Source: Candidatus Caldarchaeales archaeon (GTDB lineage: Archaea > Thermoproteota > Nitrososphaeria_A > Caldarchaeales > Calditenuaceae). Taken from it: DNA of 64,000 bases. Shown in pieces: positions 53,251-58,865 of the stretch; position 1 is the first letter of the stretch; every line of letters starts with the position of its first letter. The stretch is from assembly GCA_039630085.1 (NCBI GenBank), contig JBCNVM010000001.1:192001-256000 (forward strand). The letters are read 5' to 3'. Both the position numbers and the translations under genes were made by a program. A model generated the notes under the pieces. That model saw only the letters and a list, made by a program, of their open reading frames with translations, searched no databases and was not told where the DNA came from.

Positions 53251-53658
53251 CTAGGCGATGGCCGGCCTGTACTTGAAGCCGTAGACGATGATCCCGGCGT
53301 CACCGTCGTGGGCGATCTTCCTCACCACCCTCTCCACGAGCATCCCGGGCCTGAGCTCCTCCGGATCCGCGTCGGTTATCGGGGCCAAGACCTTCGTCCC
53401 GTCCTCGAACTCGACTAGCCCGACCACGTAGGGCGCCAGCTCCTTGTGCTCCTCGGTCGGCGACTTGACCACCGTGAACGCGACGAGCCTCCCCCTCTCC
53501 GGGAGCTCCTCCCTCACGAGGTTCCTCGACCTGCACCTCCTGCAGACGACCCTCGAGGTCGTGTTGACGGTCCCGCAGCTCGCGCACCTCAGGACCTCCG
53601 CCCTGTACCTGAACCTCCTGTGCCTCCAGTGGTTCTGGGGCCTGAAGTTGAACCTCAT
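53251..53658 (-). CDS. DUF35 Zn-ribbon/OB-fold scaffold of the thiolase/HMGCS complex
   Basis: C..CG.......C..C, G.L..FT.V, PY..G.VE, G.I.YG.K. Confidence 0.9.
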   Translation of the reverse strand: MRFNFRPQNHWRHRRFRYRAEVLRCASCGTVNTTSRVVCRRCRSRNLVREELPERGRLVAFTVVKSPTEEHKELAPYVVGLVEFEDGTKVLAPITDADPEELRPGMLVERVVRKIAHDGDAGIIVYGFKYRPAIA

Positions 53659-54833
53659 TCCCGATCACCCGCGAGCAGGACCGCGGTCCCGGCGATCGCG
53701 CCGAACCCCGAGACCGAGATCGCGGCGCCGGCCCTCGCGCCGTCCACCTGCCTCTTCCCAGCCCTCCCCGTCAGCTGCAGGTAGACCTCCGCGACCTGGT
53801 AGAGCGCGGTGGCGCCTATCGGGTGTCCCCTCGCCTTGAGGCCCCCGAAGGCGTTGATCGGGAGCTCCCCGCCCATCGCGTACTTCCCCGACTTCAGGTC
53901 CTGGCCGCTCTCCGACCTCTTGGAGAACCCCCCGCTCTCGAGTATCAGGGGCGCCATTATCGAGAAGGAGTCGTGGAGCTCAAGGACGTCCAAGTCCCCC
54001 CTCGAGATCCCGCTCCGGAGGAGGGCCTCGTCGACCGAGAGCGCGACCGAGGTCATGAAGAGGGGGTCCTCCCTGTCGAAGGGCGAGACGTAGTCGGTCC
54101 TGAGGCTTATCCCGCCTATCCTGACCGCTTCGCCGGAAGCCCGCTTCCTCTCCGAGTCCCCCGACGCGAGGACCACCGCGGCCGCGCCGTCTCCGGGCGC
54201 GAAGCACTCGAGCCTCCTCAGCGGCGGCGCGACCTCCGGCGACCCGAGGACGTCCTCTAGCCTCACCTTGAACGGGAACTGCGCGTGCCCGACTCCCTCA
54301 GCGTTGCTGTGCATCAGGACCGGGAACTGGGCGACGAACTCCTGCGGCATCTCGTACCTCTCGAGGTAGGTCCTGTAGAGCAAGGCCGCGACCGGTGCCG
54401 GCGTGACTCCCGCGTACCCCATCGTCTCGTAGGGCAGCGTCATAGAGTGGACGGAGTTGAACTCGTCGGGGAGCATGTCGGAGAGCTTCTCGCCGCCGAC
54501 CACCAGCGCGAAGTCCGAGAGGCCCGAGGCGACGGCCGCGTAGGCCTCCGCCAGCGCCATCAGCCCCGAGGCCTCCCCTCCCTCGACCCTGACGCCGTAG
54601 ACGCTCCTGAGCCCGAGCGCCTCTGCGACTAGGGCCGAGATCCCGGCCTGGTTGGAGGTCACCTCGCAGAAGGAGCACGCGACGTAGACGCCGTCTACCC
54701 TCTCGACCCCCGCGTCCTCGATCGCAGCTAGAGAGGCCTCCGCCATCAGGTCCGTCAGCGACCTGTCCCAGTGCTCGCCCACCTTCGTGTAACCGACGCC
54801 GACGACCTGGACGCTCCTCATCCCTTCAGGCAC
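53655..54833 (-). CDS. Archaeal acetoacetyl-CoA thiolase-family protein (nucleophile Cys replaced)
   Basis: VVGGEK, DGAAAVVL, ELHDSF, GGLKARGHPIGAT; sits between HMGCS and DUF35; VEGGEASG where xEAACASG is expected. Confidence 0.88.
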   Translation of the reverse strand: MPEGMRSVQVVGVGYTKVGEHWDRSLTDLMAEASLAAIEDAGVERVDGVYVACSFCEVTSNQAGISALVAEALGLRSVYGVRVEGGEASGLMALAEAYAAVASGLSDFALVVGGEKLSDMLPDEFNSVHSMTLPYETMGYAGVTPAPVAALLYRTYLERYEMPQEFVAQFPVLMHSNAEGVGHAQFPFKVRLEDVLGSPEVAPPLRRLECFAPGDGAAAVVLASGDSERKRASGEAVRIGGISLRTDYVSPFDREDPLFMTSVALSVDEALLRSGISRGDLDVLELHDSFSIMAPLILESGGFSKRSESGQDLKSGKYAMGGELPINAFGGLKARGHPIGATALYQVAEVYLQLTGRAGKRQVDGARAGAAISVSGFGAIAGTAVLLAGDRE

Positions 54834-55875
54834 CGCGTATCTTGTCCCTGTGCCGGAGATATGTCGCGTAGTCGACGTATTTCGCCCTGTTGATCAGAGT
54901 CTCGAGCAGCGGAGCCCTCGGCCTCCTCTCGAGCAGGCCGTCCTTGGTCTCGATGAGGAAGGAGTCGCTGCCCGCTCCGGAACCGAAGGACGTGAGGACG
55001 ATCCGCTGGCCCGGCCTGGCCGCGTCGAGGACCTTCACCAGCCCCATCATGGAGCTCGCGGCGTAGGTGTTCCCTATCAGGTGCGTCACCACCCCGGGCT
55101 CGACCTTCTCCTTCGGGATTCCGAGGACCTTCGCCGCCGCGAACGGGAACTTGTAGTTAGGCTGGTGGAAGACGAAGTAGTCGACGTCGGAGACCTTCAG
55201 CCCCGCCTCCTCCAGAAGCCCCTTCACCGCGGAGAGGGTGTGGTGGAAGTAGGCCGGCTCGCCGGTGAACCTGAAGGTGTGGGATGGGTAGCGCTCGTGG
55301 GCCCTCCTCCAGAAGTCGGGCGTGTCGGTGACGTAGCTCCTGGCGTGCTCTATCGTCGCGACCTCGCCGTTGCCCTGCCTGCCGACGACGAAGGCGGCCG
55401 CGCCCGCGGCGGCGGTGAACTCCAGCGCGTCGCCGGGCCTGCCCTGAGCCGTGTCGGCCCCGATCGCGAGGCCTGCCCTGATGATCCCCGCTGAGACCAG
55501 GCCCGAGATCATCTGGAGGGCCTCCGTCCCGGCCTTGCAGGCGAACTCGAGGTCGGCGGCGAGGTGGTTGGGCGGGATGCCCAGGGCCTCGGCCACGACG
55601 GTCCCCGAGGGTTTCACCGCGTAGGGGTGGGACTCGGAGCCCACGTTGACGGCCCCTATCTCCGACGGGTCGATGCCCGCCCTCCTCATCGCGTACCTCG
55701 CGGCCTCGATCGCCATCGTGATCGCGTCCTCGTCGAGCTCGTTGACCGACTTCTCCCTCACCGGGAGCGCGTCCTCCTCCCTTCCCCAGACCCTCGCGAT
55801 CTCCGTCGCCCTTATCCTGAGCCTCGGGACGTAACCTCCGTAGCCTAGGATCGCGACGTCCCTTATCCGGGCCAA
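54826..55875 (-). CDS. Hydroxymethylglutaryl-CoA synthase
   Basis: GSESHPYAVKP, EFACKAGT (catalytic Cys), TPDFWRR, HQPN, GNTY, SFGSGAGSD. Confidence 0.96.
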   Translation of the reverse strand: MARIRDVAILGYGGYVPRLRIRATEIARVWGREEDALPVREKSVNELDEDAITMAIEAARYAMRRAGIDPSEIGAVNVGSESHPYAVKPSGTVVAEALGIPPNHLAADLEFACKAGTEALQMISGLVSAGIIRAGLAIGADTAQGRPGDALEFTAAAGAAAFVVGRQGNGEVATIEHARSYVTDTPDFWRRAHERYPSHTFRFTGEPAYFHHTLSAVKGLLEEAGLKVSDVDYFVFHQPNYKFPFAAAKVLGIPKEKVEPGVVTHLIGNTYAASSMMGLVKVLDAARPGQRIVLTSFGSGAGSDSFLIETKDGLLERRPRAPLLETLINRAKYVDYATYLRHRDKIRGA

Positions 55876-55976: not shown

Positions 55977-56426
55977 GTGACGGCGCTGGACGAGAGGGAC
56001 GTCAGGATCCTCGAGGCGCTGAGGAGGGACGCGAGGAAGACGTTCACCGAGCTGGCCGGCGAGCTGAACCTCCCCAGGACGACGGTCCAGGAGAGGGTCA
56101 GGCGGCTTATCGAGGAGGGCTACATCAGGTCCTTCACCGCGATACCGGACTACTCGAAGATCGGGAGCGGGACGACCGCGTTCGTCCTGGTCTCCTTCGC
56201 GCCGACGATGGACATCTCCCAGCGGGAGCTCGCGGCCCAGCTGGCCAGGTTCCCTGAGGTCTTCGAGGTCCACCTCGTCAGCGGCCAGTGGGACATGATC
56301 CTGAAGGTGAGGGGCTCCTCGGTCGAGGACGTCGGCAAGCTGGTCATAGACAGGCTCAGGCCGATGAAGAACGTTGCCAAGACCGAGACCTGCTTCGTCT
56401 TCGAGACGGTGAAGGAGCAGCCCTGA
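55977..56426 (+). CDS. Lrp/AsnC family transcriptional regulator
   Basis: LDE.D.RIL..L..DAR....ELA..L.....TV..R..RL...G.I HTH; EVHLVSG.WD RAM domain. Confidence 0.95.
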   Translation: MTALDERDVRILEALRRDARKTFTELAGELNLPRTTVQERVRRLIEEGYIRSFTAIPDYSKIGSGTTAFVLVSFAPTMDISQRELAAQLARFPEVFEVHLVSGQWDMILKVRGSSVEDVGKLVIDRLRPMKNVAKTETCFVFETVKEQP

Positions 56427-56520
56427 AGGCCGGTCCGGATCCGACCTCCGGGATCCCCGTCGCCCGGTCTTTCAACACGCTTAAATAACGTCGAGGAGCA
56501 GCTCCGCCAGGCGGTTCGTC

Positions 56521-57354
56521 ATGCTTGTGACCGGTACCGACGTGAGGGACGCGCTGGTCAGGCTGATAAGGGTCGGTTCGCTGATAGCGGTCCTGGGCGC
56601 GGTCCACGTCCTAACCCTCCTCCTCGACTGGGTCTCCCTTCTCTACGACAACGTGATGGTCACGGGCGTCCAGGGCTACGACCTGACCACGAGCTTCCTC
56701 CTCTCGATGACGGCCGCGGCCCTCGCGGGGGCCTCCGGGGTCCTGGCCTCGGTCTCCACCAACGTCAGGGTCCTCAGGTTCGCGGTCCCGGCCTTCGCGC
56801 TCGGCGGCGCGGCCCTCGCGATCCTCTCACCGCTCTACTCGGTCCTCTACGTCCTCCCCTCGCTCCAGGTCGAGTTCAGGACCGAGGTGGGGGCGATCGC
56901 GGCGCTCTTCACTGGGGTCGCGATGGCCGGGGGCGGCGCGATATCCACGATGATCGGCCTGGTGGCCCTACGTCCCGAGAGCCAGCCCTCCGCCTACCAG
57001 CCCTACGCCCCGGTGGAGTTTGAGGCCGCAGAGGTCGGAGCGGCCTCGACGCCGGTCGCGCCGTCCGAGGAGGAGGTCTTCGAAGAGCTCCTGAGGGGCG
57101 AGCCCGAGGAGGCCTATACCGGCTTCGGGGCGCAGGCGCAGCAGGAGGCCCAGCAGGTCTTCACCCCTCCCTCGAGGTCTCCGGCTCCTCAGCAGCAGGC
57201 GTCTAGGAGGGTCTGCGTGATGTGCGGCGACGTCGTGCAGCCTTCGTCGCTGAGGACCTGCCCGGGGTGCGGCGAGCCGATGCACAGGGAGTGCGTCGAG
57301 ACCTGGAGGGACATAGGGGGCAGGTGCCCGAACTGCGGGACCCAGCTCTCCTGA
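56521..57354 (+). CDS. Membrane protein (~4 TM) with C-terminal C4HC3 RING finger
   Basis: Hydrophobic N-terminal half, acidic/Pro/Gln linker, CVMC-x11-CPGC-x4-HREC-VETW-x6-CPNC. Confidence 0.8.
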   Translation: MLVTGTDVRDALVRLIRVGSLIAVLGAVHVLTLLLDWVSLLYDNVMVTGVQGYDLTTSFLLSMTAAALAGASGVLASVSTNVRVLRFAVPAFALGGAALAILSPLYSVLYVLPSLQVEFRTEVGAIAALFTGVAMAGGGAISTMIGLVALRPESQPSAYQPYAPVEFEAAEVGAASTPVAPSEEEVFEELLRGEPEEAYTGFGAQAQQEAQQVFTPPSRSPAPQQQASRRVCVMCGDVVQPSSLRTCPGCGEPMHRECVETWRDIGGRCPNCGTQLS

Positions 57355-57392: not shown

Positions 57393-58865
57393 ATGTCCGG
57401 CAGGGTCTACGACGAGCTGATCGACCTCTCCCTCAGGAGGGGCTTCTTCTTCCCTTCCTGCGAGATCTACGACGACGCCCCCGCTGGCTTCTGGGACTAC
57501 GGCCCGCTAGGGCTGGGGCTGAGGAACAGGTTCGTCGAGGCCTGGAGGCGGTACGTCGTGAGGTACGACGGCATGGTCGAGCTCGACGGCTCGGTGATCA
57601 TGGCGAAGAGGGTCTTCGTCGCCTCGGGGCATCTGGCCTCCTTCGCGGACCCGGTCACCAGGTGCAGGTCCTGCGGCGCGATTTACAGGGCCGACAGGCT
57701 GGTCCAGGAGGCGACCGGGAGGATAGTCCCGGAGAGGCTCAGGGACGAGGAGATCTACGCGCTCATCCTCGAGCACGGGATCAGGTGCCAGAGGTGCGGC
57801 GGCGAGTTGGGGGGAGTCGAGAGGTTCAACATGATGTTCAGGGTCAGCGTCGGAGGCGAGGGCGAGGAGGCCTACCTCAGGCCCGAGACCTGCCAGTCGC
57901 TCTTCGTCGACTTCCTCAGGGCCTACAAGACGGGCTGGTCGAAGCTCCCGCTTCCCCTCTGCCAGTTCGGGAAGAGCTTCAGGAACGAGATCGCGCCCAG
58001 ACAGAGCCTCTTGAGGCTCAGGGAGTTCTACCAGGCCGAGGTCGAGGTCTTCTTCGACCCCGAGGACGAGGTCGATCCGGTGAGGTGGAGGAGGCTGAAG
58101 GACCACGTCCTGAGGTTCGGGGACGAGCGCGGGAACTTCACCGAGGTCACCGCCGAGGAGGCCCTGAACGGTGGGATCGTCTCCCACTGGCTCCCCGCCT
58201 ACTACCTGGCCCTGATCCAGAGGTTCTACGAGCTCCTGGGCGTCGAGAGGTCGAGGATACGGCTCAGGAGGCTCGGCGAGGACGAGAAGGCCTTCTACGC
58301 GAGGGAGGCCTGGGACCTCGAGGTCCTGACCTCGCTCGGGTGGATCGAGCTGGTCGCTTGCAACTACAGGGGCGACTACGACCTCTCCGGCCACGCGAGG
58401 GTGAGCGGGAAGGACCTCACGGTCCTGAACCGGAACAGGAAGGTCCTGCCGCACGTCTTCGAGCTCTCGATGGGCGTCGACAGGAGCGTCTACGTCCTGA
58501 TGGAGCTCGGGTACGCGAAGGAGCCCAAGAGGAGGGTCCTGAGGGTGCCCAAGTTCCTCGCGCCGGTCCAGGTCGCGGTCCTACCTCTGGTCGAGAGGGA
58601 CGGCCTCCCCGAGAGGGCATGGGAGATCTACGAGGGCCTCAGGGTCGAGTTCGACGCGGTATACGAGCCGAAGGACGCGATCGGGAAGAGGTACCACATG
58701 CTCGACGAGATCGGCGTCCCCTACTGCGTCACGGTCGACTACCAGACCCTCAAGGACGACACGGTCACGGTCAGGGACAGGGACACGACTCAGCAGGTGA
58801 GGGTCCACGTCTCGGAGCTGAGGGAGTGGCTGAACAGGGCGCTGGCTTACCCGCGGGCCGATTGA
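57393..58865 (+). CDS. glyS: Glycine--tRNA ligase (homodimeric archaeal/eukaryotic type)
   Basis: RRGF.F...EIY, DYGP.G, ASGH...F.DP, YLRPET.Q, FRNEI.PR..L.RLREF.QAE, IGKRY...DEIGVP..VTVD. Confidence 0.97.
   Translation: MSGRVYDELIDLSLRRGFFFPSCEIYDDAPAGFWDYGPLGLGLRNRFVEAWRRYVVRYDGMVELDGSVIMAKRVFVASGHLASFADPVTRCRSCGAIYRADRLVQEATGRIVPERLRDEEIYALILEHGIRCQRCGGELGGVERFNMMFRVSVGGEGEEAYLRPETCQSLFVDFLRAYKTGWSKLPLPLCQFGKSFRNEIAPRQSLLRLREFYQAEVEVFFDPEDEVDPVRWRRLKDHVLRFGDERGNFTEVTAEEALNGGIVSHWLPAYYLALIQRFYELLGVERSRIRLRRLGEDEKAFYAREAWDLEVLTSLGWIELVACNYRGDYDLSGHARVSGKDLTVLNRNRKVLPHVFELSMGVDRSVYVLMELGYAKEPKRRVLRVPKFLAPVQVAVLPLVERDGLPERAWEIYEGLRVEFDAVYEPKDAIGKRYHMLDEIGVPYCVTVDYQTLKDDTVTVRDRDTTQQVRVHVSELREWLNRALAYPRAD

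Follow-up and report, generated by a model that had tools for sequence, protein, structure and literature searches.

A putative membrane-anchored RING-type ubiquitin E3 ligase in the Caldarchaeales

Results

This study focused on a single gene of a Candidatus Caldarchaeales archaeon, an open reading frame (ORF) on the forward strand at positions 56521..57354 of a 64,000-nt stretch of its genome. This stretch, the window, corresponds to positions 192,001 to 256,000 of contig JBCNVM010000001.1 (assembly GCA_039630085.1), or G000:C1:192001-256000 in the numbering used here, and all feature positions refer to the whole window. The gene product, hereafter the TM-RING protein, joins four predicted transmembrane (TM) helices to a C-terminal RING domain, and it is best interpreted, with a probability of about 0.6, as a RING-type ubiquitin E3 ligase that is anchored in the membrane and belongs to the eukaryote-like ubiquitin (Ub) system of the aigarchaea (Caldarchaeales). 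A first-pass annotation, made from the sequence alone, had named it a candidate archaeal membrane E3. That proposal gained support, in that every check that was run came out in its favour, while the ligase activity is putative.

The ORF starts with ATG and specifies 277 amino acids (aa), the stop codon being included in the coordinates given. Its third-codon-position GC content (0.91) is in line with that of genuine genes of the genome. Among sequencing runs listed as containing the sequence, two were of DNA, from hot-spring metagenomes of a single study, and none was of RNA. The protein opens with a short N-terminus containing three Arg residues, and its four hydrophobic helices are joined to the zinc motif by a linker of about 80 residues.

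Identity of the zinc domain

In the translation, the ligand pattern is C232-x2-C235-x11-C247-x2-C250-x4-H255-x2-C258-x10-C269-x2-C272, in the order C4HC3. The motif lies exactly where it was first placed and has the spacing reported then, C232 beginning at 57214 and C272 ending at 57336; with a five-residue tail, the domain occupies 57214..57351 on the forward strand, as delimited by profiles and alignments, and was modelled with predicted local distance difference test (pLDDT) values of 87-94. All eight ligands, as well as Pro270, which directly follows ligand 7, were invariant in 38 of 38 aligned homologues that are 23-75% identical to the window's protein, and for this reason the motif can be regarded as beyond chance.

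The best Pfam family was zf-RING_2 (PF13639), which scored 31.5 bits on residues 224-277 alone, over its curated cut-off of 27.3 bits. This cut-off was also passed by nine of ten family representatives drawn from a library of 1.84 billion representative proteins (28.4-43.3 bits), the tenth being a 188-aa protein with no match. A profile built from 13 TM-RING domains and 8 domains of srfp, a small soluble RING protein considered below, matched 116 distinct sequences of the PDB at E ≤ 0.01. The top matches were RING-H2 E3 ligases, with Arkadia (8.9e-14) and EL5 (9.1e-13) at the head, followed by RNF4, RNF165, RNF38, RLIM, and RNF13. The modelled domain superposed on the RINGs of gp78, EL5, and RNF165 with root-mean-square deviations (rmsd) of 1.8-2.3 Å over 48 columns, the Foldseek E-values for this small domain being only 0.19-0.35.

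A PHD finger or a double zinc ribbon (DZR) was considered in place of a RING. The C4HC3 order and the C-x2-C-x4-H spacing are also compatible with a PHD finger, the domain alone scored 16.6 bits with PHD (PF00628) and 23.5 bits with DZR (PF12773), and a PHD-type entry, MLL3 (2ysm), appeared among the profile matches at E 5.2e-6. Yet both of these families stayed below their cut-offs (24 and 27.3 bits, respectively) where zf-RING_2 was over its own. DZR scored 17.4 bits on the whole protein and was not among the matches (E ≤ 0.001) of the ten representatives, the best of which reached 21.7 bits with PHD. MLL3 was the first PHD-type entry in the profile search, and named RING ligases, at E 1e-13 to 1e-8, were far ahead of it; no PHD entry or ribbon was found among the best 50 Foldseek rows for the modelled domain. 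PHD fingers carry a Trp two residues before ligand 7, but the residue at that place (two before C269) is Gly267, and Trp262 stands four residues after the sixth ligand, C258, which bears out the original reading of this Trp as occupying the RING and not the PHD position. By profile scores and ligand pattern, then, the C-terminal domain is a RING, neither a PHD finger nor a double zinc ribbon, and the chance that it is one of the latter is very small.

Prok-RING_1 (PF14446; cut-off 29.1 bits) stayed below threshold as well (whole protein, 18.0 bits; domain alone, 22.9 bits), its match covering only profile positions 5-36 of 54. One of the ten representatives passed its cut-off (P0014, 30.4 bits), and PF14446 is named beside PF13639 in the precomputed Pfam lists for 7 of 12 listed homologues. 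Compared with the C3H2C3 arrangement, ligands 3 and 4 are displaced, and the same shift has been remarked for srfp (PMC5654768).

Relation to srfp and the E2-contact positions

The E3 of the Caldiarchaeum subterraneum cascade, demonstrated in vitro, is srfp (PMC5654768), and its motif has been given as C-X2-C-X11-C-X2-C-X4-H-X2-C-X10-C-X2-C (PMC3082918). The ligand spacing of the TM-RING protein is identical, a correspondence with a tested enzyme that the earlier annotation had overlooked, even though it was right in recognising a RING. The two domains align save for a one-residue gap in the first loop, with 27-35% identity to the window's domain, and have the same Ile/Trp/Pro positions; both genes are found in one class of organisms, most of which also have them in a common neighbourhood. 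In other respects they differ. The srfp protein is soluble, only 75-90 aa long, has an N-terminal strand motif, and is encoded directly after the ubiquitin-activating enzyme (E1), whereas the TM-RING protein is 277 aa long with four TM helices and a long linker, and its gene in relatives lies some 1.3-1.5 kb beyond srfp. After the last Cys, Arg or Lys was present in 8 of 8 aligned srfp sequences, in contrast to Gly273 of the window's protein. To judge from the sequences, the TM-RING protein is a paralogue of srfp and not its orthologue, and a separate srfp-like gene is retained on contig C2 of the window's genome.

Roles of the positions that contact the ubiquitin-conjugating enzyme (E2) were taken from srfp mutants, of which I30Q abolished ubiquitylation while W58A and R69A impaired it (PMC5654768). 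In the window's protein the corresponding contact positions are M234, W262, and P270. Among 38 members of the family, the position matching I30 is Ile in 36, Met in the window's protein, and Leu in one, and that matching W58 is Trp in 34, Tyr in three, and Leu in one; the Pro is common to all. The linchpin position, directly after the last Cys, is more variable, being Lys in 19 members, Gly in 13, Gln in three, and Asn in three. A complex prediction for the E2 and the RING (residues 222-277) scored 0.15 against a mark of 0.32, but it was run without controls and counts neither for nor against binding.

Membrane part, topology, and linker

The first-pass annotation had described about four N-terminal TM helices, and four were found both by hydropathy and in the AlphaFold2 model. 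This model, from 38 sequences, had a mean pLDDT of 81.7 (93-98 in the membrane part) and superseded a first one built from 11 close sequences, with a mean of 59.9. Helix 1 (residues 8-34, 56542..56622; pLDDT 94-98) contains the invariant residues R14 and L33 and the nearly invariant H29. It leads into a predicted extracellular beta-hairpin (residues 36-51, 56626..56673) with strands at 36-42 and 46-51 of loop 1-2, which includes the invariant W37 and is followed by the invariant G52 and the nearly invariant Y53; a third strand at 119-121, in loop 3-4, completes a small sheet. Helix 2 (residues 56-78, 56686..56754; S62 invariant, G66 and G70 nearly so), helix 3 (residues 82-114, 56764..56862; S103 invariant, P104 and Y106 nearly so), and helix 4 (residues 123-148, 56887..56964; G124 invariant) were defined by the model and by conservation, and all of these features are on the forward strand.

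In the homologue alignment, the mean number of Lys plus Arg residues was 2.45 for the N-terminus and 2.63 for loop 2-3, compared with 0.32 for loop 1-2 and 0.76 for loop 3-4. By the positive-inside rule, these counts place both termini, the linker, and the RING in the cytoplasm, and the sheet outside. An Arg-rich cytoplasmic loop (residues 80-88, within 56521..57354 on the forward strand) precedes helix 3.

Helix 4 and the RING are connected by a predicted flexible cytoplasmic linker (residues 149-231, 56965..57213, forward strand; pLDDT 45-68), which is rich in Pro, Glu, Ala, and Gln, in agreement with the long acidic Pro/Gln linker described at first. Its length varies from 35 to 87 aa across the 38 homologues (Pro 17%, Glu 13%). 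Within it, a short helix (residues 183-191, 57067-57093, forward strand) is conserved in the genus only, with the motif EEEVFEELLR kept in an alignment of homologues.

The whole 277-aa protein has no Lys and 15 Arg residues, while its homologues do contain Lys. A 'lysine desert' was considered as a distinctive trait and rejected, as Lys accounts for only 3.0% of residues on average in this genome and is likewise absent from 28 of its 1164 ORFs of at least 150 aa; the composition is unusual, yet not unique in the genome.

A structure search of the modelled TM domain against 48,161 chains (VIA-align) returned claudin-fold tetraspans as all of the 11 best matches, with Z-scores of 12-14. Claudin-15 was at the top (Z 14.0, rmsd 3.3 Å, 139 residues aligned), and the next were LHFPL4, MP20, TARPs, Cav gamma-1, claudin-19 and claudin-4, and a designed claudin fold (Z 12-13.7). 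Generic four-helix bundles follow at Z 10-11, and values under about 13 can reflect the common helical-bundle arrangement. Foldseek retrieved the same claudin-type families at E 1e-3 to 5e-2. At the sequence level, the TM domain matched no Pfam family in five of five members scanned, and no claudin-type family appeared at E ≤ 10. A search of the ESM Atlas with residues 1-155 gave best scores of 0.81, which is chance level, NCBIfam returned a sub-threshold rubrerythrin-like row only, and PADLOC nothing; in the searches made, the TM domain had no sequence relatives outside the class. The membrane part is thus predicted to be claudin-like in the sense of a likeness of fold, with no kinship to claudins implied.

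Ubiquitin genes of the genome

A RING E3 needs Ub, E1, and E2 as partners. As had been noted from the start, none of their genes is in the window: the genome's ubiquitin, UQ_con, and ThiF matches are on contigs C65, C23, and C2 of the assembly (1.41 Mb, 66 contigs, 89.9% complete), while the window is on C1. A Ub-E2-E1 operon lies on the minus strand at G000:C65:7493-9611, and consists of a Ub-like gene with a product ending in GG, a UQ_con E2 (92.8 bits) in which the HPN motif is invariant and Cys94 and the loop-4 Pro are kept, and an E1 (ThiF, 205.5 bits). Rpn11-like JAB genes are present as well, as is an srfp-like small RING gene at G000:C2:3549-3716 (zf-RING_2, 29.0 bits). The genome search that the first-pass annotation had proposed therefore located Ub, E1, and E2, all outside the window, along with Rpn11-like genes, so that the partners of a RING E3 exist in this organism.

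The same genome has a second ubiquitin-like cluster (G000:C23:62053-64850 and 67065-67382). It comprises an E1-like gene (ThiF, 157 bits), a gene for a 141-aa protein with a hydrophobic start, and a gene for a 272-aa fusion of a Ub-like domain (GG mid-protein) with a weak UQ_con domain (31.5 bits), after which comes a JAB protease gene. A 105-aa protein encoded 2.2 kb beyond the JAB gene has the same RING spacing, except that Asp replaces the second ligand (C-x2-D). Such an additional UQ_con match was seen in the window's genus only (G000, G022-G026).

Conservation across the class

The order was represented by 76 species genomes and makes up the whole class in the collection used. The TM-RING protein was detected in 72 of these, with matches that include the TM domain (best E ≤ 3e-34); in one of them (G015) the gene is split over two contigs. 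Of the four genomes without it, G050 is 59% complete and the E2 was likewise not found, and in G066 and G071 a contig ends inside the gene that comes just before the expected site. In the fourth (G062, 95% complete), the expected site beside a 302-aa coiled-coil gene is a 745-bp stretch at a contig start (G062:C46:1-745, L056), which has neither the TM-RING gene nor any long ORF.

A UQ_con E2 was found in 75 of the 76 genomes, including all 72 that carry the TM-RING protein. In a sample of the phylum, the E2 was present in 43 of 43 genomes of the class and in 7 of 258 others (five over the cut-off). Close homologues (12 proteins, E ≤ 0.001) bore the source names Candidatus Calditenuis, Nitrososphaeria, and Thaumarchaeota archaeon. 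Among the 1.84 billion representative proteins, 13 clusters matched at E ≤ 1e-10, and of 199 that matched at E ≤ 0.001 the remainder did so in the RING region only. A search for RING relatives in the five E2-bearing genomes of other classes gave weak partial matches only (best E 1.9e-4), and thus yielded no independent replicate of the association. As far as these sequence searches reach, the TM-RING protein is confined to a lineage in which a eukaryote-like E2 is universal.

Two metagenomic proteins, P0104 (257 aa) and P0142 (293 aa), have several N-terminal hydrophobic helices and a C-terminal C-x2-C-x4-H RING. Only their RING aligns to the family profile (hhalign E 1.9e-18 and 3.2e-12, respectively), and they may represent far-diverged members of the family or fusions that arose in parallel. 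A third, P0013 (244 aa), is a homologue that diverges just before the RING and is without the ligands, which looks like a contig frameshift; it was left out of the alignments of the family.

Gene neighbourhood

Linkage was scored in genomes with both genes located, and was taken to mean a TM-RING gene 2.7-4.8 kb downstream of the E2 gene on the same strand. It was found in 13 of 18 genomes of family f2, 3 of 4 of f3, and 23 of 31 of f4, or 39 of 53 together. The remaining 14 genomes carry the two genes on separate contigs, and no genome had them at a long distance on a single contig. The window's own family, f1, had no linked pair among 19 genomes.

The order of the cluster is Rpn11 (minus strand), Ub, E2, E1, srfp, and cc103 (plus), cc302 (minus), then TM-RING and the glycyl-tRNA synthetase gene GlyRS (plus), where cc103 and cc302 encode coiled-coil proteins of 103 and 302 aa. 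It was seen in G012, G073, G037, G045, G060, and G040 (six loci from three families; GlyRS is inverted in G040) and also in five long records, one of Candidatus Caldarchaeum subterraneum, three of Caldarchaeum sp., and one of a Nitrososphaerota archaeon. The TM-RING-GlyRS order recurs in L029-L031, L033, L035, and L065-L070, with GlyRS inverted in L034, and adjacency of GlyRS to the TM-RING gene is conserved across the class.

Thiolase and DUF35 genes lie upstream of the Ub cluster in relatives. In the window, the minus strand upstream of the TM-RING gene carries genes for a DUF35 protein (about 53257-53661), a thiolase (53655-54833), and an HMG-CoA synthase (54826-55875). With GlyRS on the other side, the same genes frame the whole Ub cluster in Caldarchaeum-type genomes. 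In the window's genus, Ub-E2-E1 therefore appear to have moved out while the rest of the region was conserved. Within the window's family, genera g2-g4 still have the small RING gene at 1.5-2 kb from the TM-RING gene, with Ub-E2-E1 elsewhere. The first-pass annotation was correct about the content of the window, but had missed the adjacency to a Ub-E2-E1-srfp cluster in most relatives, and it is this adjacency that supports a functional link between the TM-RING gene and the Ub genes.

The cc103 and cc302 products and a third coiled-coil protein, of 264 aa, none of which has a Pfam match over the cut-off, are conserved in or beside the Ub cluster across families. Sites of their genes are L028:4673-4984 (plus), L028:4979-5887 (minus), and L028:960-1754 (minus), and, in the window's own genome, C65:6925-7485 (minus) and C1:160791-161279. 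The 302-aa coiled-coil gene divergently adjoins the TM-RING gene, including in G029, a genome of the window's family in which the Ub genes are elsewhere. A 2781-bp contig (L064) is 100% identical at the protein level to the cluster of G012 (end of E1, srfp, both coiled-coil genes, and TM-RING). Its record is named uncultured Bacteroidota bacterium, and it is probably a mis-binned archaeal contig.

The gene immediately upstream of TM-RING in the window encodes an Lrp/AsnC-type regulator (55977..56426, forward strand; Pfam AsnC_trans_reg 63.1 bits, HTH_24 60.8 bits). A TATA-box-like element, TTAAATAA, was read from the sequence at 56481..56488 on the forward strand, 40 nt before the ATG, and is possibly the TATA box of a promoter belonging to the TM-RING gene itself. 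The downstream neighbour is GlyRS (57393..58865, forward strand), with 57% identity (tblastn) to the GlyRS next to the TM-RING gene of G012.

Discussion

If the TM-RING protein is a membrane-anchored E3 ligase, its RING would bind the charged E2 via M/I234, W262, and P270, and would help to pass Ub on to Lys residues of proteins located on the membrane's cytoplasmic side. The flexible linker of 35-87 residues could give the RING its reach, and the tetraspan domain might pick membrane-protein substrates or partners by lateral contact, or fix the ligase at a site in the membrane.

Several observations weigh against this interpretation. On the whole protein of the window, zf-RING_2 scored 26.7 bits, just below the cut-off. 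The window's protein has Met234 where 36 of 38 members carry Ile, and Gly273 at the linchpin, a position at which srfp has R69, with the R69A mutant impaired in activity. In family f1, none of the 19 TM-RING genes is within 6 kb of the E2 gene, three being on one contig with it at a distance of 86-719 kb and 16 on different contigs. Even where the genes are neighbours, the opposite-strand cc302 gene stands between the Ub operon and TM-RING, which speaks against co-transcription, and since the flanks (thiolase/DUF35 and GlyRS) are conserved as well, the adjacency may in part be inherited gene order. The co-occurrence with E2 must be read in the same light, as both genes are near-universal in a single class and their association represents one evolutionary event, not a set of independent replicates. 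The main doubts are the linchpin missing in the window's genus and the lack of linkage to the Ub operon in its own family, and the E3 role is accordingly described as putative.

Two other explanations were considered, each of which appears rather unlikely. The protein could be a non-catalytic member of the Ub pathway, a tethered RING that recruits or parks the E2, the charged E2 (E2~Ub), or srfp, or that regulates srfp, without activating transfer. Such a role would fit the Gly that occupies the linchpin in 13 of 38 members, the window's protein among them, the presence of a soluble srfp orthologue in the same genome (G000:C2:3549-3716), and the persistence of a small RING gene near TM-RING in g2-g4 even though Ub-E2-E1 has moved away. 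However, the E2-contact Ile, Trp, and Pro are conserved, and the linchpin is Lys in half of the members (19 of 38). A linchpin Arg or Lys is typical of active RING E3s, yet it is not part of the fold, and many active RING E3s are without a canonical one. In the alignment, a basic residue (Lys or Arg) immediately precedes C7 in 7 of the 13 Gly-type members and stands two positions beyond C8 in 3 of them, although this alternative placement is a lead only, because the pattern tracks the family tree.

It is about equally improbable that the domain is a RING-like zinc finger with no connection to ubiquitin, for instance a part of some signalling or assembly factor that binds lipids or other proteins, as has been proposed for some prokaryotic RING families. 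The sub-threshold matches to Prok-RING_1 (22.9 of 29.1 bits) and to C1-type fingers, and the passing score of P0014, point in that direction, as do the separation from Ub genes in the window's family and the equally conserved adjacency to GlyRS. On the other hand, the domain is closest in sequence to the tested srfp and to eukaryotic RING-H2 ligases, the protein is restricted to a class with a universal E2, and its gene is beside the Ub cluster in 39 genomes. A membrane-anchored RING-type E3 ligase is the reading that was preferred on this balance.

Relation to known systems

The gene itself has not gone entirely unnoticed. Fuchs et al. 2018 mentioned a 'second E3 protein' beside the C. subterraneum operon (PMC6043591), the main text of that paper, as distinct from its figures and supplements, being without the words membrane and transmembrane. 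Judged by sequence matches, this second E3 very probably belongs to the same family as the TM-RING gene, because in single-contig G012 and in the Candidatus Caldarchaeum subterraneum record L065 the only RING match besides srfp is the TM-RING gene, which lies 1.27 kb downstream of it. In Nunoura et al. 2011, the legend of Figure 3 labels the cluster neighbours as hypothetical proteins (PMC3082918), and Grau-Bove et al. 2015 counted up to nine zf-RING_2 genes in an aigarchaeote, the word transmembrane not being used in the accessible text (PMC4327156). Full-text searches of the literature yielded nothing relevant on archaeal membrane-anchored RING proteins, and a search on archaeal claudin-like proteins found nothing. 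Thus, the gene had already been noticed as a second RING protein, while its membrane anchor, class-wide conservation, and fold are not described in the literature searched.

Of the archaeal RING E3s, only one has so far been tested, the small and soluble srfp, for which no natural substrate is known. A membrane-tethered paralogue that is near-universal in the class and mostly encoded beside the Ub cluster points to the cell membrane as a possible site of action of the archaeal system. Should the paralogue prove to be active, no ubiquitin ligase anchored in a membrane would have been found in prokaryotes before it, and it would have a bearing on a pre-eukaryotic origin of Ub-dependent membrane-protein control.

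The predicted fold of the membrane part is a second, independent lead. Members of the claudin/PMP22/TARP/LHFPL superfamily resemble the modelled domain in having four TM helices, a small extracellular beta-sheet, and both termini inside, but sequence identity is only 5-15%, no Pfam claudin family is matched, and the first outer loop of the TM-RING protein has no Cys residues. A more speculative proposal, which is tentative at best, is that the Aigarchaeota have a dedicated ligase for membrane proteins in which a claudin-fold tetraspan, as modelled, is fused to a RING and would act as the selector of substrates or partners. The tetraspan might then be an archaeal forerunner of the claudin-type fold, and Ub tagging at membranes, which is the logic of endoplasmic-reticulum-associated degradation (ERAD) and of MARCH- and RNF-type control of surface proteins, would be older than eukaryotes and any endomembrane system.

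Eukaryotic ligases of two kinds invite comparison. MARCH (RINGv, or RING-CH) proteins are membrane-anchored and have the same C4HC3 order, but the RING-CH spacing is C-x-C followed by x7-H, which differs from the C-x2-C-x4-H of the TM-RING protein, and the RING of MARCH proteins is N-terminal to two TM helices. RINGv was not among the best 25 Pfam rows for the window's protein. The multi-spanning RING-H2 ligases (Hrd1/synoviolin, gp78/AMFR, ZNRF3, RNF13, and plant ATL) come closer, in that a cytoplasmic RING-H2-type domain is attached behind a TM region, and their RINGs were matched by the family profile (RNF13 4.5e-9, ZNRF3 4.5e-9, AMFR 7.8e-9, synoviolin 4.4e-8, and yeast HRD1 4.7e-5). The TM parts, in contrast, gave no sign of kinship, the fold matches of the TM-RING protein being claudin-type tetraspans and not Hrd1; no Hrd1 TM chain was among the structure-search matches listed, which does not by itself exclude kinship. 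The setting also differs, since the archaeal host, unlike the eukaryotic cell in which ERAD operates, is without an endoplasmic reticulum, and any 'ERAD-like' role of the TM-RING protein would be played at the cell membrane.

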